A stretch of DNA of 64,000 nt from Alphaproteobacteria bacterium. GTDB lineage: Bacteria > Pseudomonadota > Alphaproteobacteria > CACZRW01. The translations under genes and the position numbers were made by a program. Numbering within the stretch: the first letter of the stretch is position 1; every line of letters starts with the position of its first letter. Location: contig JAFWAG010000001.1 in NCBI GenBank assembly GCA_017507765.1, positions 7,013 to 71,012 on the forward strand. The letters run 5' to 3'. The notes below the pieces were generated by a model that was not told the origin of the DNA, ran no database searches, and saw nothing but the letters and a program-made list of their open reading frames with translations. Of the stretch, positions 17,240 through 58,829 are shown one piece after another.

Positions 17240-18301
17240 ATGGCGGTATCTGAACAAATCAAAAAGAAAGCTGAGTATGATGCCGCTATTGCTTTGAACG
17301 GTTGGCTGAGAATATTCGCCTCTAATTCGGGGAATCCTATCCACGGTAATAACCAAGCCATTGCTAAAAGGCAGCTTATGCGCCTTGATGCTTTTTTGGG
17401 GGCTTATGCAAGGCCATATCATATCAAAGATTGGCAACTGCGAATGGAAAGAAGAAAAGCTTTTATGGCTCAGACTATTACAATGGGCGGGAAAAGCTTA
17501 AATCCTTTTGAATATGCTTTGAAATATGCTCCCAAAGATACGGTTCCTTTAATTCTTGACCGTTTCACCGATGACTATACTTATGTATGCACAAGTACGG
17601 TAGCTCAGAAAATGGCAAAAAATCCCGAACTTAAACAATTGATGTTAAGCAGGATTGCCACCAATTTTTATTTTAAGGGGCAAAGTATTTCCGAATGGTA
17701 TAATCAGGAACGCTTGGCAAAAATTATCAGCCACTTTCCGGAAATAATCCATAAGCCCATGCCAAACCGAAACGAACAAAACTTTGGTTCGTATCTGTTA
17801 AGTATAAAAACTTGCGACCCGTTTGTATTCTTTAACGAAGCAATTAAAAAAAGCCGTATTACTCCGGTTCGGTTCTTGGAATTCGTAGCGGAAAACAATC
17901 CCGAATATATGGCAAAAGCCGTGGAAAACACCGCTTCCCGCTATAAAGTCAAAGCCAAACAACAAGAACAGATAGACTTTTTAAGTAATTTAGCAACAGT
18001 TTATCCTCATTTCACTTATGACATTGTTACGTCTTTTATGAAGACTTCTTCTTATCCGGCAAAAGAAACTTTCCCCGAAGAAGTATTGCTTAAATCTTCC
18101 GAATTAATCGAAAACAGCGGAGTGGAAAGCTTTTTGCAATCCGCCTATGCCTATACCGATACCAGAGGAGCTACGGAAAAAGAAAAGCTGCTTCAACGGA
18201 CTTATGCTACAGTTTTAGACGGCAACGAAGGAAAGGGTTATGAAAAACTGATGCGGCTTTCCCTTATCGCCAATTATTCCAGTCCCAAACGGGCGTTTTA
18301 A
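17240..18301 (+). CDS. hypothetical protein (353 aa), predicted all-helical, no recognisable motif
   Basis: Long clean ORF 27 nt after the small ORF, with no signal peptide or TM segment. I cannot assign it to any family. Confidence 0.6.
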   Translation: MAVSEQIKKKAEYDAAIALNGWLRIFASNSGNPIHGNNQAIAKRQLMRLDAFLGAYARPYHIKDWQLRMERRKAFMAQTITMGGKSLNPFEYALKYAPKDTVPLILDRFTDDYTYVCTSTVAQKMAKNPELKQLMLSRIATNFYFKGQSISEWYNQERLAKIISHFPEIIHKPMPNRNEQNFGSYLLSIKTCDPFVFFNEAIKKSRITPVRFLEFVAENNPEYMAKAVENTASRYKVKAKQQEQIDFLSNLATVYPHFTYDIVTSFMKTSSYPAKETFPEEVLLKSSELIENSGVESFLQSAYAYTDTRGATEKEKLLQRTYATVLDGNEGKGYEKLMRLSLIANYSSPKRAF

Positions 18302-31041: not shown

Positions 31042-31506
31042 ATGAATAATGAAACCATAACCTTAGACGCAGAAAGAAGAGAATACAAAATCCAAACCGT
31101 GCTTGATATCGTCGCACAGCTTTCCGATTTGTTGGATACGGAAAACAACGGTCTTAAAACCCACGACTTTGGATTGGTTAAAGAAATGATGGGGCAGAAA
31201 ACAGCCTTGGCTCATTCTTATAACGATGTTTGCCAGCTGTTTAAACAGCACCCGGAAATCTTGCAAGAAGCAGATGCCGAACGCGGCGGCCTTATCAAAG
31301 AATCTTTGATGAGCCTGCAAGAAAAAATGAACCTTAATGCAAGCTTATTAAAAGCAAACATGGACGCAAACAACAAACTTATTCAACTGATTATCGATTC
31401 AACCAAAACGCATCGAGCAGAACAAAACAGCGTGTATGACGCCGCAGGAACTTTGAATGATGCTTCCGGTAAAAGTTCGGCAATCAGCTTTAACAAAGTA
31501 CTTTAA
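31042..31506 (+). CDS. FlgN-like flagellar chaperone candidate (FlbY position of the Caulobacter flgI operon)
   Basis: 154 aa, helical. LSDLLDTENNGLKTHDF...KTAL resembles the FlgN family. The position upstream of flgK/flgL supports the call. Confidence 0.45.
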   Translation: MNNETITLDAERREYKIQTVLDIVAQLSDLLDTENNGLKTHDFGLVKEMMGQKTALAHSYNDVCQLFKQHPEILQEADAERGGLIKESLMSLQEKMNLNASLLKANMDANNKLIQLIIDSTKTHRAEQNSVYDAAGTLNDASGKSSAISFNKVL

Positions 31507-35596: not shown

Positions 35597-36559
35597 TTAT
35601 TTTTCCGGATTAGTTACTTGGTTATCCTTTGGTTCCGCTTCCGGCTCTGCTTCTTTGGGCGGAACGTAGAGGGGAATCTCAAGCTTTGGTTCGTCTTGGT
35701 TCGCCTCGGCAAGCTCTTTGTAAACCTTGGCAAGCATTTCGCCTAAGAACGCTTGGTCCTGACTTAAAGCTTTGGCTTTTTCTTTGAACTCATCAAGATA
35801 AACTGAACAGTTTCTGCTTTGAGTCATTAAAAGGAAAAAGCGAGGATACCGAAGAGGTGTCTGCGAAAAATATAAATCTTCCTTTATCTTATACTTATTG
35901 CTGTCGGCAGTCGCCGTATAAAGCCCAATCAAAGCAACATCAGCTTTGCCGGAAAGTAAATCTTGAAACAATGTCTTGGTATCAGGAACCGTACTTAAAG
36001 AAGAACCTGTCGGAAGCGTATATTTAAAAAGTTCGTCAACATTGTCTCTTTTAAGCGAAACTATCTTCATATCCCGAAGCTGATTTATGTCGGTAATAAC
36101 CCTTCCCTTGCCTTTGGCAAAAACGGCAACTATCGGATTGCCCATGTAAGAAGGATATAAAAAGCCTTTACTTAGGCTCTTATTATTTACATAGGCTGTA
36201 CCAACGGCAATATCCGCCTTTTCGGCAAGGACAAGGCTGTGCAGTTCTTCTTGCGAGTCTACGGCAATAATCCGGATTCTTTTTATCGACGTACCTTCAA
36301 TAAGCTTCATGACAAATTCAAAATCAAGACCATGTAGCTGATTCCTGATTTCTCCGTCTTTGTCTCTGCGCTTGGTTATCCAAGAAAACGGCACGTTGTC
36401 CTTTAATGCCGCAATTTGAAAGGTAAAATTACCCTGACCGCATTGGTCTCTTTTCATACGCAAAGCTTTTTCTTCGTCCTTGGCAAATGCCGGTAAAGAA
36501 AAGGCAAAAATAAACAGAAAAACTATCGGAAAAAATATAGAAAAAGGCAATTTATTCAT
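35597..36559 (-). CDS. periplasmic solute-binding protein, family 3 (amino-acid ABC-type SBP-like)
   Basis: 320 aa with a signal peptide, the periodic features of an SBP_bac_3-like fold (ADIAVG, KADVALIG) and a Pro/Glu-rich C-terminal tail. No permease or ATPase gene is adjacent. Confidence 0.65.
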   Translation of the reverse strand: MNKLPFSIFFPIVFLFIFAFSLPAFAKDEEKALRMKRDQCGQGNFTFQIAALKDNVPFSWITKRRDKDGEIRNQLHGLDFEFVMKLIEGTSIKRIRIIAVDSQEELHSLVLAEKADIAVGTAYVNNKSLSKGFLYPSYMGNPIVAVFAKGKGRVITDINQLRDMKIVSLKRDNVDELFKYTLPTGSSLSTVPDTKTLFQDLLSGKADVALIGLYTATADSNKYKIKEDLYFSQTPLRYPRFFLLMTQSRNCSVYLDEFKEKAKALSQDQAFLGEMLAKVYKELAEANQDEPKLEIPLYVPPKEAEPEAEPKDNQVTNPEK

Positions 36560-37204: not shown

Positions 37205-39136
37205 ATGGAAATTAACAATATACTGTCAGGAAATGCTTATGATGCTACTTCTCCGGCAAACGCCGGAAAAACCGAGCTTAAAGCGGCTGATGCTTTTATG
37301 TCCTTATTGAATAATGTGGATATAAAAGGCGCAGATTTCCAATATTCTTTTACTAATATCTTAGACAACCTTACTCCGGTAAGAGAAAAAGCTCCGGAGC
37401 CAGAGGCAAAAAATACCGACCTGCCGGCAAAGCCGAAAGCAAATAAAAAAGCTAAGGCCGAACCGGAACCTAAAGATAACGCTTATGCCGAAAATGCGGC
37501 TCAACCCCAGACGGAAAGCGTAAAGAAAGAAAGTAAAGCAGAAGTTTCCTATACCGCTGCTCCTTCCGAAAACAACTCTGATTATACCCCAACCCCAAAT
37601 GAAACAGAAGTTGGCAAGCCTACCCCAAAATCGCTTCAAACCCCTGAAGCCGGCTTACAAAAGGAAGGAGCAACGGTCCCCTCTTTAAACGCCAAAGACT
37701 TAGAGCTTGATGCCAATGCGGCAAAAAATGCCTCCTTGCAGAACGAAGGGGAAGTATTGGCAGCGAATCAGCCGGAAAACACCAAAGCAATCCTTGAAGA
37801 TGATGTCCAAGTAAAAGCAGAGGTTAAACCGGTTACAACCTCTCCTTTGCTGGAAAAAGAAAAGATTGTTTCGACAGATATGCCGGAAAAGCCAATTGTC
37901 TTATCGGAAGATATAGTTAAGACTTTGCCGGAAACTGCCGATGCGCAAGAAACTTATTTCCCAGAATCGGAAATAAAGGTGGATGCGAATACTCAAGACA
38001 AAACGCTTTTAAACTCCGACAGAATGCCGGAGACCACCTCTTTAAATGTTAAAGCCGAAGAAACTTCGGAACCGGTGGTGGCAAAATCTATTCTGGACAC
38101 TCAAAAGCAACGGCTTGCTTCGCTTATCGGTAAAGATGAAGCAGCTAAGACAGAGGTTAAAGTACAAGTAACTCAAGAAGCCCTTCCAGAACAAAAAACC
38201 GAAACAATCGTGAAAGAAGCGGTTTTGGAAGCTCCGGAAGCCGATACGGTAAAAGTAAATGCGGAAACGTCAGTCCCCGTTAAAAAGGCGGAAGCAGATA
38301 CAAAAGAATATACTTTTGAACGGACGGAAGGTGAAGGTGAAGCTGAAGCGGAAATGCCTTTGCTGAAAACCGAAACGAAAAATACCGCAAAGCCTGTTAA
38401 TTCTACTCTTAACGAAGGACAGTTTTTAAAAGAACAAAATAACCTGAATACGGTTAAGACAACTTCTTTGCTTTCTTCGGGGGCAGAAAATCAGGCTACT
38501 TCTGCGGTGCAAAACTTTACCTCTCAGCTTAAAGCCGGAGCGGTTAAAGCTGAAGCCGTAAACGGTATTGATGCTCAAACGGCAACAAATGCAAAGGCAA
38601 CACCTATGCAGGCAGCCGCTATCGCTGAGAAAGCCGATACTTTAGCAAAGACTGTGAATGCTCAGAAAACGGCTCAGCTTCCAAAGCAGGTACGCCAGAA
38701 TATTATCGACCAGATTAAGGTTGATATAACCAAAGCCGCAAATAAAGAAAACGGCCTTGATAAAATTAAAATCAACCTGAAGCCAAGAGAACTCGGCTCG
38801 ATTGAAGTTAAAATGGAAGTCGGCAATAACGGCCATTTGAAAACTTCCATTACCGCAACCAGACCGGAAACTCTTGATGCTTTGCAAAGAGATGTCAGAG
38901 TTTTGGAACGTGCCTTGGCTGATGCAGGATTTGATATCAAAGATAACTCTTTAAGCTTCCAGCTGAGAGGTGAAAATCAACAGCAGGGACAGCAGCAATT
39001 CGCCGATGATAATCGTCAGGGAACTTTCGCAAATACGGAAGAAAACTTAATCCAAGATAACGAGCCGGAATTGTTTGCCGAAGATGTTATCCGTGAAGAT
39101 GAAAACGGTCTTTATGCCGTTAATATAAAGGTATAG
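37205..39136 (+). CDS. fliK: flagellar hook-length control protein FliK
   Basis: 643 aa with a long Pro/Glu/Lys/Thr-rich ruler region and a C-terminal Flg_hook-type domain (IKINLKPRELGSIEVKMEVGNNGHLKTSITATRPETLDALQRDVRVLERALADAGF). Confidence 0.8.
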   Translation: MEINNILSGNAYDATSPANAGKTELKAADAFMSLLNNVDIKGADFQYSFTNILDNLTPVREKAPEPEAKNTDLPAKPKANKKAKAEPEPKDNAYAENAAQPQTESVKKESKAEVSYTAAPSENNSDYTPTPNETEVGKPTPKSLQTPEAGLQKEGATVPSLNAKDLELDANAAKNASLQNEGEVLAANQPENTKAILEDDVQVKAEVKPVTTSPLLEKEKIVSTDMPEKPIVLSEDIVKTLPETADAQETYFPESEIKVDANTQDKTLLNSDRMPETTSLNVKAEETSEPVVAKSILDTQKQRLASLIGKDEAAKTEVKVQVTQEALPEQKTETIVKEAVLEAPEADTVKVNAETSVPVKKAEADTKEYTFERTEGEGEAEAEMPLLKTETKNTAKPVNSTLNEGQFLKEQNNLNTVKTTSLLSSGAENQATSAVQNFTSQLKAGAVKAEAVNGIDAQTATNAKATPMQAAAIAEKADTLAKTVNAQKTAQLPKQVRQNIIDQIKVDITKAANKENGLDKIKINLKPRELGSIEVKMEVGNNGHLKTSITATRPETLDALQRDVRVLERALADAGFDIKDNSLSFQLRGENQQQGQQQFADDNRQGTFANTEENLIQDNEPELFAEDVIREDENGLYAVNIKV

Positions 39137-51874: not shown

Positions 51875-52570
51875 ATGGCAGAAACGGCAAACTTAACCGC
51901 CATAGTATCCGGAAATGAAACCATAGGGAAAACTCGGATTGCAGTGGGACTGGCGGAAAGTTTTGCGGCTGCCGGAGAAAAAGTGCTTTTACTGGATACG
52001 GATATAGGATTTGGAAAACTTTCCGAATACTTAAAAGTAACCCCTGATGTCGACCTTTATGATGTATTGTACAACAGGGCGACATTAAATCAAGCAATCA
52101 TATTTTCTCCGGAAGGCGGGTTTGACGTTATCATCGGTTCCGGTAACAGTAAATGTAACATAGCCGCAATTCCGGAAAGCAATTTCTTTACCCTTAGGAA
52201 CGATATCCTATTACTGGCAGGAAATTATGACCGGGTAATAATCGATATGCCGACCGGAGAAAGCAAAAGCAATTTTTTATTACTGGACGCTTCGAAACAA
52301 ATTGTGCTGATTGCAAACGACCATGCGCCATCTATACGGGGAGCGTATGCCTTTATGGTCAGCATGGCAGAAAGAAAAATCTTGGCTAATATGGCGATTG
52401 CGGTAAATCTGGCTGCCACGGAAAAAGACGGAGAAACGGTATATCTTACCTTGCAAAAAGCCGCCAAAGCTTTTATTGGCAAAACACCGAAGTGGCTTGG
52501 AAACGTACGTAAAGACAACCTTGACGATATTTTATCTTTGGCAAAGGAGCTTGGCAAATGGACCTTGTAA
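51875..52570 (+). CDS. flhG: MinD/ParA-type flagellar number regulator FlhG (FleN) with a degenerate Walker A
   Basis: It sits directly after flhF. It carries the MinD-fold motifs LLLDTDIG and VIIDMPTG plus a C-terminal amphipathic helix. The P-loop reads SGNETIGKT instead of SGKGGVGKT. ATG 51875 is chosen over the track start 51812, which lies inside flhF. Confidence 0.75.
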   Translation: MAETANLTAIVSGNETIGKTRIAVGLAESFAAAGEKVLLLDTDIGFGKLSEYLKVTPDVDLYDVLYNRATLNQAIIFSPEGGFDVIIGSGNSKCNIAAIPESNFFTLRNDILLLAGNYDRVIIDMPTGESKSNFLLLDASKQIVLIANDHAPSIRGAYAFMVSMAERKILANMAIAVNLAATEKDGETVYLTLQKAAKAFIGKTPKWLGNVRKDNLDDILSLAKELGKWTL

Positions 52571-54540
52571 CACCTGTACCTTCGGCACCAGTTCCGCAAA
52601 GCTCCGGCGGAAGCGGGAATGCTTTGAATGCTTCGGTGCTTAACCCGTCAAAAGAGCTTGAAGCTTTAACACCGGAAAGCATCGTGAAAGGTGTCATTAC
52701 CGCTGTTGATAAAGTAAAAGGAAGTGTATCCGTTTACGGGCAGACGCCGGAAGAAAAACCTTTCAATATGGAAATTAAAATGCCTCTGATACCTGTAGAA
52801 GGAAGCGAGGTTAATATTAAAATCCTGCCCATAAGTCAAAGAACGCCGGAAAATCCTTTTCCTATAAAACTGGTTATAAATCCCAAAGCTTCTCCGCTTG
52901 CCACTCCTTTGCAGAATAGTGAATCAATGTTACAAAAAGGAATCTTGCCGGAAGCACAAAATGCCGGAAATAAGCCGATAGGGCAGCTTTCAACCCCTTC
53001 TTCCAATAGTGAATCAATATCACAACAAAGCGTTCCTGCGGATATAAAAAATGCGGCGGATAAAACTTTATCCTCGGCAAAAGCCGTTGATAACGCTTCT
53101 TTTTCCATAAAAAGTAATATTATAACAGCAGAGATATTATATACGGCGAAAAACATACCGGATATTAAGCTTATGCCTTCGCTTCAGCCGCAAAATATAA
53201 AGCCGGAAATGCAAACCGTTTTAAAAGCCGATGCATCATGGCAGGAGAATCCTCTGCCTATGGATATGGTGAAGCAAGGAACTTCTTTAAGTGTGAAAAT
53301 CGTTCAGGTGGAAGTTCCGGCAGGGAAACTTCCGGCGGGAAGTATTGCTTTGTCCGCAAGCCAACCGGCAAACGCAGGACAAGCAACGAGTCTTGGCCAA
53401 ACGCCAACAACGCAAGTAATGGGGGAAAACTTACCAAGCCGCCCGTATGAACAATTTTATCCTATGCCAAATCAGCCGGCACAAACGACGCAGACACAGC
53501 CCTTGTCCTCTTCCCCGCTTCCGAGTCAACCGATACAAACTCAAGCGCCTTTACCTACGGCTCAGCCTTCCTTGCCGAATGAAACGCAAGGACAGCCTGT
53601 GCAGACAATTCCGCCTCAGGGAAGCTCTGGGAATACTACCATATCCTCACCGAATACTAACTTTACGATAAGCGGAGAAGTCGTAAGCAAGCCTGCAGTA
53701 CCGCATACCGTTGTCGCGAATCAGGAAATGACCCTGTCTTTAAATATTAAAACCGAGTTTCCGACCGGAAGTTTAATAAAAATGGACGTTGTATCCTTAA
53801 CTCTGCCGGAAATAAATCCGAAGATGCCGGTATTAAATACGGTTAAAGCTGCTCCGCCGGACTTTACAGAGCTTAATACCGCCCTTAAAGAGCTTACCGT
53901 CAGCAATCCCAAAGCGGCGGCAGAGATGCTGGCAAAGATACCCCAACCGAATGAAAAGCTTGCCCAGAACCTCTTTAACTTTGTGCAGGCGGCTAAGTCC
54001 GGAGACGTTGGCCAATGGTTAGGAGCCGCAACCGTAAAAGCTTTGGAAGATACCGGCGATAACGGGCGAAAAATTACCGGAAAAATATCGGCAGATATGC
54101 TGGCAACATCACGAATAGCAACAGAAGCTTTGGGTGAATGGCGGACTTTAAATATTCCATTCTTGAACGGGCAAACCGTTCAGCCGGTTGCTTTGTTTGT
54201 AAAGCATCTTAACAATGAGGAGCAAGGACAGGAAACCACCCAAGGCAGCAAAAAATCTGCTTCGGTGCGCTTTTTATTTGAACTGGAGCTGTCAGAGCTT
54301 GGGCGGACGCAGATTGACGGCTTGACTTATCCAAAGGAAAAAGAGCTTGATTTGATTATCCGTAATGAAAAAGCTCTGCCGGAAGAAGCTCCCATCGCTA
54401 TGCGGGGAATATATGCCGAAGCTTTGGAGGCCGTGGGATATAAAGGCACCCTAACCTTACTTAAAACAAGTGATTTTATCGAAATAGCCGCGGCGGAAAA
54501 TGCCGAAGCATTCATTCCTAATTCAGATATTTGGGCATAA
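52558..54540 (+). CDS. Pro/Gln/Ser-rich protein with a FliK-like (Flg_hook-like) C-terminal domain
   Basis: 660 aa, overlapping flhG by 13 nt, with a low-complexity PQ-rich middle. The C-terminal RFLFELELSELGRTQIDGLTYPKEKELDLIIRNEKALPEE...YAEALEAVGY resembles the FliK C-terminal domain pattern. Confidence 0.5.
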   Translation: MDLVTPVPSAPVPQSSGGSGNALNASVLNPSKELEALTPESIVKGVITAVDKVKGSVSVYGQTPEEKPFNMEIKMPLIPVEGSEVNIKILPISQRTPENPFPIKLVINPKASPLATPLQNSESMLQKGILPEAQNAGNKPIGQLSTPSSNSESISQQSVPADIKNAADKTLSSAKAVDNASFSIKSNIITAEILYTAKNIPDIKLMPSLQPQNIKPEMQTVLKADASWQENPLPMDMVKQGTSLSVKIVQVEVPAGKLPAGSIALSASQPANAGQATSLGQTPTTQVMGENLPSRPYEQFYPMPNQPAQTTQTQPLSSSPLPSQPIQTQAPLPTAQPSLPNETQGQPVQTIPPQGSSGNTTISSPNTNFTISGEVVSKPAVPHTVVANQEMTLSLNIKTEFPTGSLIKMDVVSLTLPEINPKMPVLNTVKAAPPDFTELNTALKELTVSNPKAAAEMLAKIPQPNEKLAQNLFNFVQAAKSGDVGQWLGAATVKALEDTGDNGRKITGKISADMLATSRIATEALGEWRTLNIPFLNGQTVQPVALFVKHLNNEEQGQETTQGSKKSASVRFLFELELSELGRTQIDGLTYPKEKELDLIIRNEKALPEEAPIAMRGIYAEALEAVGYKGTLTLLKTSDFIEIAAAENAEAFIPNSDIWA

Positions 54541-55549: not shown

Positions 55550-55624
55550 TGGCTCCGACGGTAGGATTCGAACCTACGACCAGCCGGTTAACAGCCGGCT
55601 GCTCTACCACTGAGCTACGTCGGA
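55550..55624 (-). tRNA. tRNA-Asn (anticodon GTT)
   Basis: The reverse complement folds as TCCGACG-TA-GCTC-AGTGGTA-GAGC-A-GCCGG-CTGTTAA-CCGGC-TGGTC-GTAGG-TTCGAAT-CCTAC-CGTCGGA-G-CCA. It is 75 nt with an encoded CCA. Confidence 0.95.
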
Positions 55625-55646: not shown

Positions 55647-55721
55647 TGGAGGCCGAGGCCGGAATCGAACCGACATAAAAGGATTTGCAGTCCTCTGCAT
55701 GAGCCATTCTGCCACTCGGCC
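55647..55721 (-). tRNA. tRNA-Cys (anticodon GCA)
   Basis: The reverse complement is GGCCGAG-TG-GCA...TGC-A-GAGGA-CTGCAAA-TCCTT-TTAT-GTCGG-TTCGATT-CCGGC-CTCGGCC-T-CCA. It is 75 nt with an encoded CCA. Confidence 0.95.
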
Positions 55722-55879: not shown

Positions 55880-56521
55880 ATGGATTTTTCCACCTCTGCT
55901 CGCCAAAATATGGTTGAAAATCAGCTTAAACCGCAAGGAATTATGAATGCGGCACTTTTGGAGGCTATGACAAACACTCCCAGAGAGGACTTCGTTCCCG
56001 AAGAATATGCGGATACGGCTTACAGTGATTTTGATATTCCTCTTACTGATACACGCTTTTTATTCCGCCCCGCAGAAGTCGCAAGATTTATTGCCGCCGC
56101 AGAGCTACAGCCTGATGACTTTGTCGCCGATATAGGCTGCAAGCTTGGCTATATAACTTTTATAACCGCTAAAATGGTAAAAGCCGTGGTCGGCATTGAA
56201 AGCGATAAAGCTTTGGCGGACAAAGCCGAAAACGCACTTTTGGAAGTCGACAATGCGGCAATCATTAACACCGATATGCATAAAGGAATGCCAAAGCAAG
56301 CACCTTTTGATGTGATATTTTTGGAAGAAATCCAAACCTCGGCTATGGCACCGAAACATTTTATTTCTCAGCTTGCGGATAACGGAAGACTGGTTTTCAT
56401 AACCGGAAAGGCGCCGATTTTAACCGTTCGGCTACTGATAAAAAAAAGGGAAGAAGTGTTTGAAAAAACGGCGTATCAATTCCTTTTAAACCCAGAAGCC
56501 CAAATTGCCCAAAGGGTTTAG
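55880..56521 (+). CDS. protein-L-isoaspartate O-methyltransferase-family protein (Pcm-like)
   Basis: MVENQLKPQGIMNAALLEAMTNTPREDFVPEEY and the SAM-binding DIGCKLGYITF. ATG 55880 (AGGAAAAAGGA upstream) is preferred over the track start 55787, which begins within 70 nt of the tRNA-Cys gene. Confidence 0.75.
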   Translation: MDFSTSARQNMVENQLKPQGIMNAALLEAMTNTPREDFVPEEYADTAYSDFDIPLTDTRFLFRPAEVARFIAAAELQPDDFVADIGCKLGYITFITAKMVKAVVGIESDKALADKAENALLEVDNAAIINTDMHKGMPKQAPFDVIFLEEIQTSAMAPKHFISQLADNGRLVFITGKAPILTVRLLIKKREEVFEKTAYQFLLNPEAQIAQRV

Positions 56522-56624
56522 GAAATACTTTACTGTTTGCCGTGATTAAAATATACTTTGAACGGTTATTTAAATGCAGGAGATTCGATAATGCATATGT
56601 TTCCTAAGAAAATGAAAGTCTCTA

Positions 56625-56632
56625 CCCCCCCC
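56625..56632 (+). repeat. homopolymeric C8 tract at the frame junction of the surface-protein gene
   Basis: Counted directly: tctaCCCCCCCCgtt. It separates the SD/ATG frame (56591) from the long ORF frame. Confidence 0.9.
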
Positions 56633-56681
56633 GTTAGAAAATAGCGTCCAATCCGGAAGTATCACCGTTGAAGTTATTATT

Positions 56682-58829
56682 ATGTTAGGGTTAATAGCTA
56701 CCCTGACACCGATACTTTATAAACACGTTGCCGACCGTCGGGAAGATATCGACAATATCAATGAAGCAAACACTCTGCTGTTAATTAAGAATGCTACCAA
56801 GGATTATATCGAGGCGAACAAAGATGTTTTATCCGTCGGTACTACCCTTCTTGAACCGGTTGATGTCGGAGTTGATATAGACGGTTACAAAATAGGTATA
56901 AAAAAGGATTCTGATGGCAACATAAATGCGATGATAGCCGCTTCTGACGGAAGCAATGATATGAAGGCTGCGAAGGTGGCGTCTTTGCTTGGGGTGTCGG
57001 CGGGGATTTATTCGGCGCAAGATGCTACCAGAGCTTGGGGTATTAACGGAGTCTGGGCAGAGAATGTAAGTAATTACGGTTTTACTTCTTTACCCGCAGG
57101 AATACCGGTGGTTACCACTACTTATGACGAAGAAGATAGCCTTGATATGGAGAAAATCTTTACGGCTATTGAAGAACACTCTTTTGAAAAGCTTACCGCC
57201 AAGGAGCTCTGCCTTGATAATGATGAACTGCCGGAAGAAGAACGCTGTATCACCAAATGGAAAGAGGAAACCTGTCCGGAATTAGTTGAGTTTTGCAATA
57301 ACGGGATAAAATGCCATGATGCATATTCCAAACGATGCAACCTGACCTGTAATGATATTTTGATAGGTTATCGGGCGGAAGGAATGACGCCTCAATCAAA
57401 TTATGATTTTCGTTTAACGGGAAGTAATTCAAACGGCGAAGCCAACAAAACCAAATGCTATTTCACTTCGACCACCGGATATAATGCGATAGAGATTATC
57501 GAAGCCTGTAACGGCGGTAATACGGAAGCTTGCAGTTTAGCAAATACCTATAGCCTTAACACCTCTTGTCAGAAGATTATAGATGCCTATAAAACGTTAA
57601 ACCAAACTCCGAGCAACGGTACATTTAAGCTTGGAGCAGCGGGAACGTCCACAGCCTGTTGGTTCAAAGACACCACAGGTTATTCAACCAAAGAAGTAAT
57701 TGAAAAATGTAATGCGGGAACAACGATTGCCTGCCAGATGGGAAGTGAGAATAAGTTAAACCGTACCTGTGCGGAATTGCAAACAGCGATGAAAAGTTAT
57801 GGAGCTATTCCGGCAAACGGCTCGTTCAAACTGACGCTGACCAGTACTACGGGTTCATCATATACTTGCGATATGAGCCAAACTCCGGCCTTAACGGAAT
57901 ACTTTTATAAAAACACGGCAGGGACATATACATTCAGTCTTTTAAGTAAAAAGATACAGTACAAGTTTGAAGTTTGCGGAGCTTCAAATTACGGTGGCAG
58001 AACACACGGAGGATATTCTTGGGGAAAGAAAATCCACAATTCCGCCCAAAGTTTTTTTGTGATTGTTGGTGGAATAGGAGGTGTCGGCACTTATGGTGCC
58101 TCTAGTTCCGGCGGAGGAACGGAGATACGTTTTGGAACATCTTCATGGGTTGATAAACACCGGATTTTAGTCGGCGGAGGAAGTAGCGGATATAATGCAA
58201 GTGCTACTCCTGGAGCTGGAGGAGGAGGCAACAATTGCGGCGGAGGCGGAGCAATGGGAGGTTGTAAAGGTGTTGGCGGCAGAGGATATGGAAATCCCAA
58301 CACTCCTGGAACTATCGGTCATGGAGGAGCTTCCGGCTTGTCTTGGTATGCAGGAACAGGAGGTAATGGAGGTGGCTACGGCGGCGGTGGTGGTGGAGGC
58401 GGCGACTGGGCTGGCTATGGCGGAGGCGGCGGAGGTGGCTTCGGCGGTGGAGGTCAAGGTGGCTCCTATGGTTGGGGTGCCGGTGCGAGCGGTACGGCAA
58501 CAAACGGTGGTGGTGGCACGACCGGATATAACGGAGGTTACGGTCAGGCAGATGGTGACGGAGGTTTTGGCGGTGGCGGCGGCTCAGACTGGGGAAGCGG
58601 AGGGGGCGGCTACGGCGGAGGTGGCGGCGGTGGCAGAGCCTCAGACGGAACCGCTGACCTCTCTGGCGGCGGGGGCGGCGGGCGAGTCTGTCTGGCGACT
58701 ATGCCGGCAGGGTGGCCGGCTTGTGACCCTGCGGTATGGGTGTTTGACGAAGGCTCCGGCGAAACCGGCAGTGATAAATGTCCCGGCACAGGTTGGGTAA
58801 AAATATCCGTGATAGAAATAAAGGAATAA
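56682..58829 (+). CDS. pilin-like-anchored cysteine-repeat / polyglycine-domain surface protein (longest intact ORF; the coding frame is open from 56616 and probably initiates at 56591 via the C-tract)
   Basis: 715-aa ORF. The upstream in-frame sequence encodes QSG/SITVEVIIMLGLIA (prepilin-like G-1/E+5). Three Cys-containing repeats follow, then a glycine-rich domain (GTYTFS...EVCGA...GGY...VIVGGIGG...GGGTEIRFG...RILVGGGSSG) and about 170 residues of polyglycine blocks. Confidence 0.7.
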   Translation: MLGLIATLTPILYKHVADRREDIDNINEANTLLLIKNATKDYIEANKDVLSVGTTLLEPVDVGVDIDGYKIGIKKDSDGNINAMIAASDGSNDMKAAKVASLLGVSAGIYSAQDATRAWGINGVWAENVSNYGFTSLPAGIPVVTTTYDEEDSLDMEKIFTAIEEHSFEKLTAKELCLDNDELPEEERCITKWKEETCPELVEFCNNGIKCHDAYSKRCNLTCNDILIGYRAEGMTPQSNYDFRLTGSNSNGEANKTKCYFTSTTGYNAIEIIEACNGGNTEACSLANTYSLNTSCQKIIDAYKTLNQTPSNGTFKLGAAGTSTACWFKDTTGYSTKEVIEKCNAGTTIACQMGSENKLNRTCAELQTAMKSYGAIPANGSFKLTLTSTTGSSYTCDMSQTPALTEYFYKNTAGTYTFSLLSKKIQYKFEVCGASNYGGRTHGGYSWGKKIHNSAQSFFVIVGGIGGVGTYGASSSGGGTEIRFGTSSWVDKHRILVGGGSSGYNASATPGAGGGGNNCGGGGAMGGCKGVGGRGYGNPNTPGTIGHGGASGLSWYAGTGGNGGGYGGGGGGGGDWAGYGGGGGGGFGGGGQGGSYGWGAGASGTATNGGGGTTGYNGGYGQADGDGGFGGGGGSDWGSGGGGYGGGGGGGRASDGTADLSGGGGGGRVCLATMPAGWPACDPAVWVFDEGSGETGSDKCPGTGWVKISVIEIKE
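57339..57875 (+). repeat. three tandem divergent coding repeats (about 72, 68 and 37 aa) with conserved cysteines
   Basis: TCNDILIGYRAEGMTPQSNYDFRL...CYFTSTTGYNAIEIIEACNGGNTEAC / SCQKIIDAYKTLNQTPSNGTFKL...CWFKDTTGYSTKEVIEKCNAGTTIAC / TCAELQTAMKSYGAIPANGSFKL...YTC. Confidence 0.8.
58170..58685 (+). repeat. low-complexity GGN-codon block (polyglycine runs punctuated by Y/W/F/D/S)
   Basis: Encodes GGGYGGGGGGGGDWAGYGGGGGGGFGGGGQGGSYGWG...GGFGGGGGSDWGSGGGGYGGGGGGG. It is visibly G+C-rich relative to its surroundings. Confidence 0.9.

Follow-up and report, generated by a model that had tools for sequence, protein, structure and literature searches.

In modular pilins, a pilin module carries a grafted functional module that is probably located at the filament tip, and a census of such proteins has catalogued over 1,200 of them, with 264 different architectures (Raynaud et al. 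2021, PMC8179133). Dataset S1 of this census contains two proteins of the architecture IPR012902-PF12810 and one of the architecture IPR012902-PF12810 x3, and the supplementary tables also list a PilY1 protein with PF12810 (PMC8179133). CofB of enterotoxigenic Escherichia coli (ETEC) has a pilin-like N-terminal domain followed by repeat and beta-sandwich or lectin-type domains (PMC8179133), and pilC of Neisseria is phase-variable via a homopolymer tract within its reading frame (PMC5953494). Here we describe a gene on the forward strand of a 64,000-nucleotide stretch of DNA from an Alphaproteobacteria bacterium (GenBank assembly GCA_017507765.1, contig JAFWAG010000001.1, positions 7,013 to 71,012), the whole of which is referred to as the window. 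We read this gene, with a probability of roughly 0.55, as encoding a phase-variable modular pilin-like adhesin with an ALK/LTK-type glycine-rich tip that is now in the OFF frame. An earlier note on the window had described the segments of the protein and had considered their combination to be without described precedent. All of these segments are present in the sequence; the note missed the family to which the protein belongs and the length-polymorphic poly-C switch. Its claim of novelty was too strong because IPR012902-PF12810 is listed in the above census, so that the pairing of a pilin with a glycine-rich domain has a precedent, though an uncharacterised one.

The protein resembles modular pilins such as S. 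sanguinis PilB and PilC in that a small pilin carrier is fused to bulky functional modules (PMC8179133). Unlike them, the family described here has a Cys-repeat stalk in addition, numbers at least 15 paralogues in a genome and carries ON/OFF switches of its own, and no cognate machinery was found for it in the regions examined. The family also lacks the IPR012902/N_methyl signature, so a census based on that signature would miss it, as censuses of modular pilins by N-methyl signatures miss whole families of this sort. With the type IVb minor pilins and tip adhesins (ETEC CofB, V. cholerae TcpB and PilV of plasmid R64) the protein shares a pilin-like N-terminus joined to repeat or lectin-type domains, but there is no sequence similarity and the family genes lie outside pilus operons. 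R64 PilV has a constant N-terminus and a C-terminus that is swapped by a shufflon, whereas here homopolymer slippage and a multitude of separate genes, in place of DNA inversion, would be the source of variation. A further likeness to the R64-type pilus is that its operon contains pilM2, and the best fold match of our N-terminal module is a putative PilM protein. What is new here is a divergent carrier invisible to signature searches, the Cys-repeat stalk, the size of the repertoire and the per-gene switches, together with the lack, so far and in the regions examined, of identifiable assembly machinery.

The sole complete open reading frame (ORF) of the locus in the ORF listing is 56682..58829 (+), of 715 aa, and the ATG at 56682 that opens it has no comparable Shine-Dalgarno site to the one found further upstream. 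There, the Shine-Dalgarno sequence AGGAG (56578..56582, +) can be read directly 8 nt before an ATG at 56591, which is the true start. The first 11 leader codons (MHMFPKKMKVS, then T; 56591..56624, +) are followed by a tract of eight C residues (C8; 56625..56632, +) and by the rest of the leader, LENSVQSG (56634..56657, +), which ends in the Gly(-1) of a predicted prepilin-peptidase cleavage site. The frame of ATG 56591 differs from that of the 715-aa ORF, and C7 or C10 is needed in order to join the two. The C7 reading gives a product of 745 aa with the N-terminus MHMFPKKMKVSTPPLENSVQSG|SITVEVIIMLGLIATLTPILY (as a longer stretch, MHMFPKKMKVSTPPLENSVQSG|SITVEVIIMLGLIATLTPILYKHV), and the C10 reading gives 746 aa. 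Since C8 parts the ribosome-binding site and ATG from the gene body, this copy is OFF: the locus is a real gene that is currently not in frame. The earlier note had proposed an in-frame C7 construct, which shows that it had noticed the frame break, and C7 does restore the frame; it did not point out the current OFF state. A sigma-70-like promoter candidate, TTTACT-17-TATACT (56529..56557, +), has 9/12 matches, shows no enrichment over shuffles and is weak alone. A sigma-54 promoter in the common upstream sequence was rejected by eye, the GG and GC elements being wrongly spaced. Residue numbers below refer to the 737-aa translation of window:56616-58826.

The C8 tract is the only run of G or C longer than six bases in the window, and we consider it a candidate slipped-strand phase-variation switch in which C7, C10 and C13 would be ON and C8 and C9 OFF. 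Over 17.3 kb, a contig of a sister strain from another sample (L001) shares 99.5% identity with the window, and only two indels separate them. One is an extra C in the tract, which is C9 and also OFF in the sister strain. The other is 15 bp long, in frame, and lies at 53469 in the gene of a 660-aa protein, so the tract holds the only frame-changing indel. The 715 downstream codons are intact in both strains, the 11 differing sites being 6 synonymous ones and 5 amino-acid changes. The leader ..KMKVST-Cn-..LENS..SG with its tract is found again at seven further loci with paralogues, which come from four samples or metagenome-assembled genomes (MAGs). In addition to the two strains above, tracts were inspected at L007 (paralogue P0006, C8), L008 (P0044, C8), L027 (P0015, C9), L028 and L029 (both P0010, both C9), L002 (C9, with different flanking sequence) and L012 (a distant subgroup, C7), all of which are OFF, and at L024 (P0011), where the tract is C10 and ON and the leader MHMFPKKMKVS is in frame. 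Several database proteins carry an in-frame PPP or PPPP in their leaders.

Codon usage points the same way. The leader Pro codons are CCC throughout, and in the polyglycine region the 92 codons for Gly are divided among GGC (34), GGA (29), GGT (26) and GGG (3). This choice of codons suggests that slippery DNA is avoided where the protein needs repeats and kept where a switch would act. Judged from sequence, the tract pattern is what marks a homopolymer contingency locus. A case in point is Neisseria pilC, a pilus-associated adhesin gene switched ON and OFF by a homopolymer tract that also lies within the 5' part of the coding sequence (PMC5953494). Unlike the gene product described here, which is pilin-like, PilC is no pilin; compared to homopolymer contingency loci in general, the tracts here are shorter (7-10 vs 9-20) and the switch recurs in many paralogues of one family. 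The pilC tract reportedly lies in the part coding for the signal peptide (Jonsson et al. 1991).

The 5' ends of some paralogues are strikingly alike. The cassette at window 56521-56632 is nearly identical to L027:1-53 and L028:2180-2283, and the proteins of these cassette-sharing paralogues are otherwise only about 50% identical. In L028 the cassette includes the promoter-like site and the Shine-Dalgarno sequence as well as the MHMFPKKMKVST leader and its poly-C tract; the L027 sequence starts shortly ahead of the start codon and does not reach up to the promoter-like site. The near identity points to gene conversion among the 5' ends or to strong selection acting on this cassette.

The leader is followed by a constant module (56658..57176, +), identified from conservation and AlphaFold, with Ser(+1), Glu(+5) at 56670-56672, a hydrophobic stretch and Thr-Pro at +18/+19. 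Among 184 complete N-termini of the family, Gly(-1) is present in 181, mostly after Lys or Arg, and Glu(+5) also in 181; position +18 is Thr in 180 and Ser in the other 4, and Pro(+19) has no exception (184/184). Positions +6 to +17 are hydrophobic, with Gly at +11. The leaders ahead of Gly(-1) are free in both sequence and length (median 11 aa, n=184), and the leader in the window is short and basic and ends in ...SVQSG|S. AlphaFold, run on the full protein as well as on the isolated module, gives a continuous 55-residue helix from about +1 on a small beta-sheet with predicted local distance difference test (pLDDT) values of 80-94. The best fold match of the module in the PDB is the putative PilM protein 3eoi (E 0.012, probability 0.99, template-modelling (TM) score 0.55).

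Behind the carrier lies an acidic Cys-containing linker, ELCLDNDELPEEERC...SKRC, at 57204..57338 (+; residues 197-241, from sequence), and then three tandem Cys-repeat modules of about 70 aa, the third partial, at 57330..57890 (+; residues ~239-425) with 4, 4 and 2 Cys, respectively. C199, C211 and C245 are invariant in the family alignment. The local alignment score of repeat 1 with repeat 2 is 17 standard deviations above shuffles and that of repeat 2 with repeat 3 is 8. The pLDDT exceeds 95 over these modules, and their copy number ranges from 1 to 5 across 72 family proteins. The repeats start with Asn-x-Ser/Thr-Cys (NLTC at 57336-57347, NTSC at 57555-57566 and NRTC at 57759-57770), and the family consensus holds an LNxxC motif; this start could be purely structural or could be a sequon of the N-glycosylation type. 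The Cys-repeat segment found no matches in the large protein database, where the query had too few index words to be informative.

The C-terminal module begins with the beta-strand core of an ALK/LTK-type glycine-rich domain, its TNF-like part (57891..58223, +), assigned from fold matches and carrying YTF, GA.GG, GGGTEIRFG and RILVGGG; the motifs GTYTFS..YKFEVCGA..GGGTEIRFG..RILVGGGSSG fall at residues 436-545. It is followed by a polyglycine block of 154 aa, identified by composition and presumed to be a polyglycine-II subdomain (58224..58685, +; residues 537-690). The block is 55% Gly and has ten runs of G4-G8 with aromatic or Asp spacers. A C-terminal cap with three Cys and two beta-strands in the AlphaFold model ends at the stop codon (58686..58829, +). 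Its strands (712-716 and 727-735) have pLDDT values of 70-94, and the cap is conserved in the paralogues L028a and L003. The model is confident for the beta-strand core (residues 426-520) and for the cap (712-735). When the full model was compared to the PDB, ranks 1-21 were all glycine-rich domain (GRD)/TG structures of ALK or LTK (E 5e-5 to 5e-3), the top entries including 7nx1, 7lrz, 7mzy, 7n00 and 7lir with probabilities of 0.97-1.00. The model covers only part of the domain, which keeps their TM scores low (0.2-0.28). A library of viral structures gave 41 matches at E <=1e-3, which are mostly named glycine-rich-domain proteins and include some phage minor tail proteins.

Paralogues support the same assignment. 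The module of P0015, which is about 37-43% identical to that of the window, depending on which of two alignments is used, matches Pfam PF12810 with 27.5 bits (E 3.8e-6), above the gathering cut-off of 24.5. Among 34 paralogous modules 4 match PF12810, with a best E of 1.1e-7, and the glycine segment of the window protein aligns with paralogous modules over its full length. The glycine-rich module is therefore supported as an ALK/LTK-type domain, as far as models and profiles can tell. It is like the ALK/LTK TG domain (PF12810) in its top structural matches, its motif pattern and the position of Gly runs between the beta-strands of the domain; it is unlike it in that its sequence falls below the Pfam cut-off, it has a long polyglycine block, and it is a bacterial domain linked to a pilin-like module, whereas ALK and LTK are receptor kinases.

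Whole-protein Pfam and NCBIfam scans of the window protein returned nothing significant, and a search of PDB sequences with the single sequence gave no relevant match. A profile of the glycine domain reached only antibody single-chain Fv (scFv) chains among PDB sequences, an artefact that arose via their GGGGS linkers; a narrower glycine profile found no match there, and no ALK/LTK chain was reached by the family profiles. The narrower profile also gave no matches in the large protein database, an uninformative result as the word index was swamped by Gly words. Two side observations concern the coding sequence of this region. Nine of the 11 substitutions between the window and the sister strain lie at nt 58262-58653, in the glycine-rich domain and mostly in polyglycine-coding sequence, and four of them change an amino acid. 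The G+C content of window 58224-58685 is 64%, vs 43% in the remaining gene.

The protein belongs to a large family. In the large protein database, 72 clusters are close homologues, and those with names are all 'hypothetical protein' from Alphaproteobacteria MAGs. Homologues usually start with MNRTQKG|SITVEAIVMLGLIA, and in about 24 family proteins the called start is the internal MLGLIA methionine, as in the 715-aa ORF. When the first 190 residues were made into a profile and compared to 1.84 billion representative proteins, 491 clusters were found at E <=1e-3, including proteins of about 1,000 aa that start with QKG|SMMVEALAMLGLITMVTPILYKK; in one of these clusters the named members are, once more, hypothetical proteins of Alphaproteobacteria MAGs. 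One MAG (locus tags IKD08_) encodes at least 15 paralogues of about 650 aa, all annotated as hypothetical. Its locus tags reach only about IKD08_06640, which we read as about 1,300 genes, so that the paralogues represent a large genomic investment. A scan of a genome collection found the family in one species-representative MAG only. The window contains a single copy; a second paralogue lies 7.4 kb downstream of the gene in the sister strain, just past the end of the window, and one 11-kb contig holds three.

DNA similarity among paralogues is limited to the 5' ~600 bp, and the C-terminal modules vary. Some paralogues have other glycine-rich subtypes, and in about ten the glycine domain is replaced by an unrelated Trp/Cys-rich module, which has no significant family in Pfam. 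A C-type-lectin or Xlink identity was considered for this module and dropped for insufficient support (E 0.036). In the literature on PF12810 and on bacterial polyglycine-II domains the family is not described; it is an undescribed, lineage-specific family of uncultured Alphaproteobacteria.

Several results weigh against our reading, and the first group concerns the carrier. Even when E values up to 10 are admitted, the window protein has no match to Pfam N_methyl (PF07963), TadE or NCBIfam TIGR02532. Canonical pilins are absent from the significant fold matches in the PDB, with S. sanguinis PilC at only E 0.32, and a profile of the N-terminus found zero matches among PDB sequences. The residue at +1 is Ser, and the usual residue at this position in pilins is Phe or Met. 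As the earlier note had stated, the window has no prepilin peptidase or pilus assembly gene: among all its ORFs of at least 150 aa, which were scanned against Pfam or named from the precomputed Pfam annotation of L001, there is no prepilin peptidase, assembly ATPase, platform protein or secretin. None of these four appears in six Pfam-annotated neighbourhoods or in 297-kb motif scans of these organisms either, and the family genes stand alone among housekeeping and flagellar genes. We retain the label pilin-like because the class III residues are near-invariant and the predicted shape agrees, despite the lack of a hidden Markov model (HMM) match or a canonical fold match; the module is thus pilin-like by motif and predicted shape, and membership in a type IV pilin family is not established. 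For the prepilin-like N-terminal helix of the earlier note this means that the Gly(-1)/Glu(+5) motif and the helix model speak for it, and the pilin HMMs and the comparison to solved pilin folds against it.

The results on the carrier are also what recommends the main rival explanation, in which the N-terminus is an uncleaved signal-anchor in the inner membrane and the protein functions in the periplasm or envelope without any filament. Such an anchor would match neither a pilin HMM nor, significantly, a pilin fold, it would have no pilus machinery in the neighbourhoods examined, and the 22 Cys of the protein suit an oxidising periplasm as well as the surface. However, it leaves unexplained why Gly(-1) and Glu(+5) are near-invariant beside leaders that vary freely, why a charged Glu sits within a hydrophobic segment, and why a 55-residue helix runs onto a beta-sheet. 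In addition, it is exposed structures that typically show phase variation and have large repertoires of paralogues. We consider an inner-membrane anchor unlikely, although it deserves to be taken seriously.

The second group of results concerns the tract. Nine of the ten tracts inspected are OFF, a count biased towards OFF since the loci were picked for N-terminally truncated gene calls. Together with the out-of-frame state of the gene in both the window and the near-identical strain, this could indicate a decaying pseudogene that the frameshift has inactivated permanently. We find this improbable given that the 715 codons are intact in both strains, the lesion is always in the same tract with differing lengths, an in-frame C10 allele exists, and the promoter, ribosome-binding site and leader cassette are conserved among paralogues. 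It is still less probable that C8 is a sequencing or assembly error in an intact gene. Homopolymers are error-prone on some platforms, but independent assemblies from several samples give C7-C10 at homologous tracts, about 24 family members are likewise truncated by gene callers, and the 17.3 kb compared contain no other frame-changing indel.

The remaining results concern the glycine-rich domain. The segment of the window protein scores only 6.8 bits (E 8.1) against PF12810, and none of the full-length paralogues matches this family, possibly due to composition correction. The ALK/LTK-type domain proposed in the earlier note thus agrees with the fold matches and with the PF12810 match of a paralogue, and not with the PF12810 score of the window protein itself. 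The polyglycine block has a pLDDT below 50 and no lattice is predicted for it, so a polyglycine-II lattice is suggested by the Gly runs and by homology. The domain has a comparable fold in glycine-rich proteins of phages and giant viruses, such as mycobacteriophage minor tail proteins, which probably also share a receptor-binding role; these proteins lack a pilin-like N-terminus, and their genomic surroundings are viral. The least probable explanation of all is that the protein, instead of being a bacterial surface appendage, is a receptor-binding or tail-fibre-like protein of phage origin or belongs to a phage-like particle. In its favour, many phage and giant-virus proteins with glycine-rich domains, minor tail proteins among them, match the model, and tail fibres also combine a constant N-terminus with a variable C-terminus. 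Against it, no phage genes were seen in the neighbourhoods examined, all of which are housekeeping or flagellar, a hydrophobic N-terminus of the cleavable type is foreign to tail fibres, and at least 15 scattered copies per small genome are unlike a prophage.

The reading of the gene as a phase-variable pilin-like adhesin can be put together as follows. The protein consists of a constant carrier (leader-Gly, Ser-x3-Glu, a helix and a small alpha/beta head), the acidic linker, a stalk of 1-5 Cys-repeat modules of disulfide type, and an exchangeable C-terminal module, which in this copy is the ALK/LTK-type domain with a 154-residue polyglycine insertion, closed by the Cys cap. Slipped-strand mispairing would alter the tract length, and the poly-C paralogues would toggle ON and OFF reversibly, each independently of the others. 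In the ON state a prepilin peptidase would cut after Gly, and the N-terminal helix would place the protein in a type-4-filament-like fibre, most probably at the tip, as for other bulky modular or minor pilins. The rigid glycine domain may be the ligand-binding face, and many paralogues with differing tips would provide a variable repertoire of adhesins. Surface display and adhesion are inferred only.

More tentatively, the family may form a lineage-specific type-4-filament-like display system with a non-canonical carrier, which lacks the N-methyl signature and has Ser at +1, and at least 15 interchangeable tip modules per genome, among them the ALK/LTK-type polyglycine domain, each paralogue being switched on its own by poly-C slippage in the leader or by a structured 5' RNA element not described before; we regard this wider proposal as possible rather than probable. 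If it were true, it would mean programmed adhesin variation in a small-genome group without cultured members. Such surface variation would probably be central to the life of these uncultured bacteria. The family is also a natural sequence set for asking what role the ALK/LTK-type domain has in bacteria; here the domain occupies the position expected of a receptor-binding module.

A second control route of the family may be an RNA element. Paralogues without poly-C have a conserved 5' leader element of about 80 nt with three predicted stems, in which an outer stem UGGGAG...CUCCCA encloses two hairpins. Copies are located at L001:19418-19493, L003:6814-6896, L004:9622-9710, L005:9885-9959, L027:10570-10655 (-), L028:10417-10502, L008:3814-3888, L023:4728-4814 and L013:3449-3536; the window has none, and one copy precedes an unrelated 64-aa ORF. 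In the alignment, which was fitted to the model and thereby favours structure, 95.4% of aligned cells are paired and 13/20 pairs show compensatory changes, values that 0/500 shuffles reach. A covariance model built from seven copies found two more, upstream of paralogues of the distant subgroup (E 1.4e-4 and 3.8e-3). No Rfam family reached its threshold, the best being sRNA-Xcc1 with 21.9 bits vs a cut-off of 53. We regard the element as a candidate new cis-regulatory RNA.

The surroundings of the gene are as follows. The first 28 kb of the window (1-28 kb) hold housekeeping genes, and a flagellar cluster occupies 29.5-54.5 kb, with FlgI, FlgK, a flagellin-like protein, FliK, FlgD, FlgE, FliF, FliG and FliH as well as MotA, a sigma-54 activator, FlhA, FlhF, a MinD-like ATPase and the 660-aa protein without a family. 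After the cluster come shikimate dehydrogenase (-), two tRNA genes, protein-isoaspartate methyltransferase and the gene under study. Downstream of it there are a Mur ligase, a hydrolase and a D-Ala-D-Ala ligase, all convergent, and then a major facilitator superfamily (MFS) transporter. Four ORFs in the window have no Pfam match (17240-18301, 31042-31506, 35597-36559 and 52558-54540). The last of these, also the last gene of the flagellar cluster, encodes the 660-aa protein, which is rich in Pro, Gln and Ser; the FliK hook-length domain is in a separate protein at 37205-39136.

The two tRNA genes are adjacent (55553-55624 and 55650-55721, -) and lie about 0.9 kb upstream of the gene. The pair is also found at the same relative position in MAG E30__bin2 (L005), so the family member there is a positional orthologue, one with the RNA leader but without a poly-C tract. 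Flagellar genes occur in three neighbourhoods (the window with L001, L007 and L025). A flagellar link was judged coincidental because the operons differ and other neighbourhoods have no flagellar genes. FliL and FliM adjoin the member at L025:9316-13123, a distant one of about 1,040 aa. An ORF of 223 aa with a hydrophobic N-terminus and no Pfam family lies 13 bp upstream of this member and, going by its position and sequence, may be a conserved partner gene.

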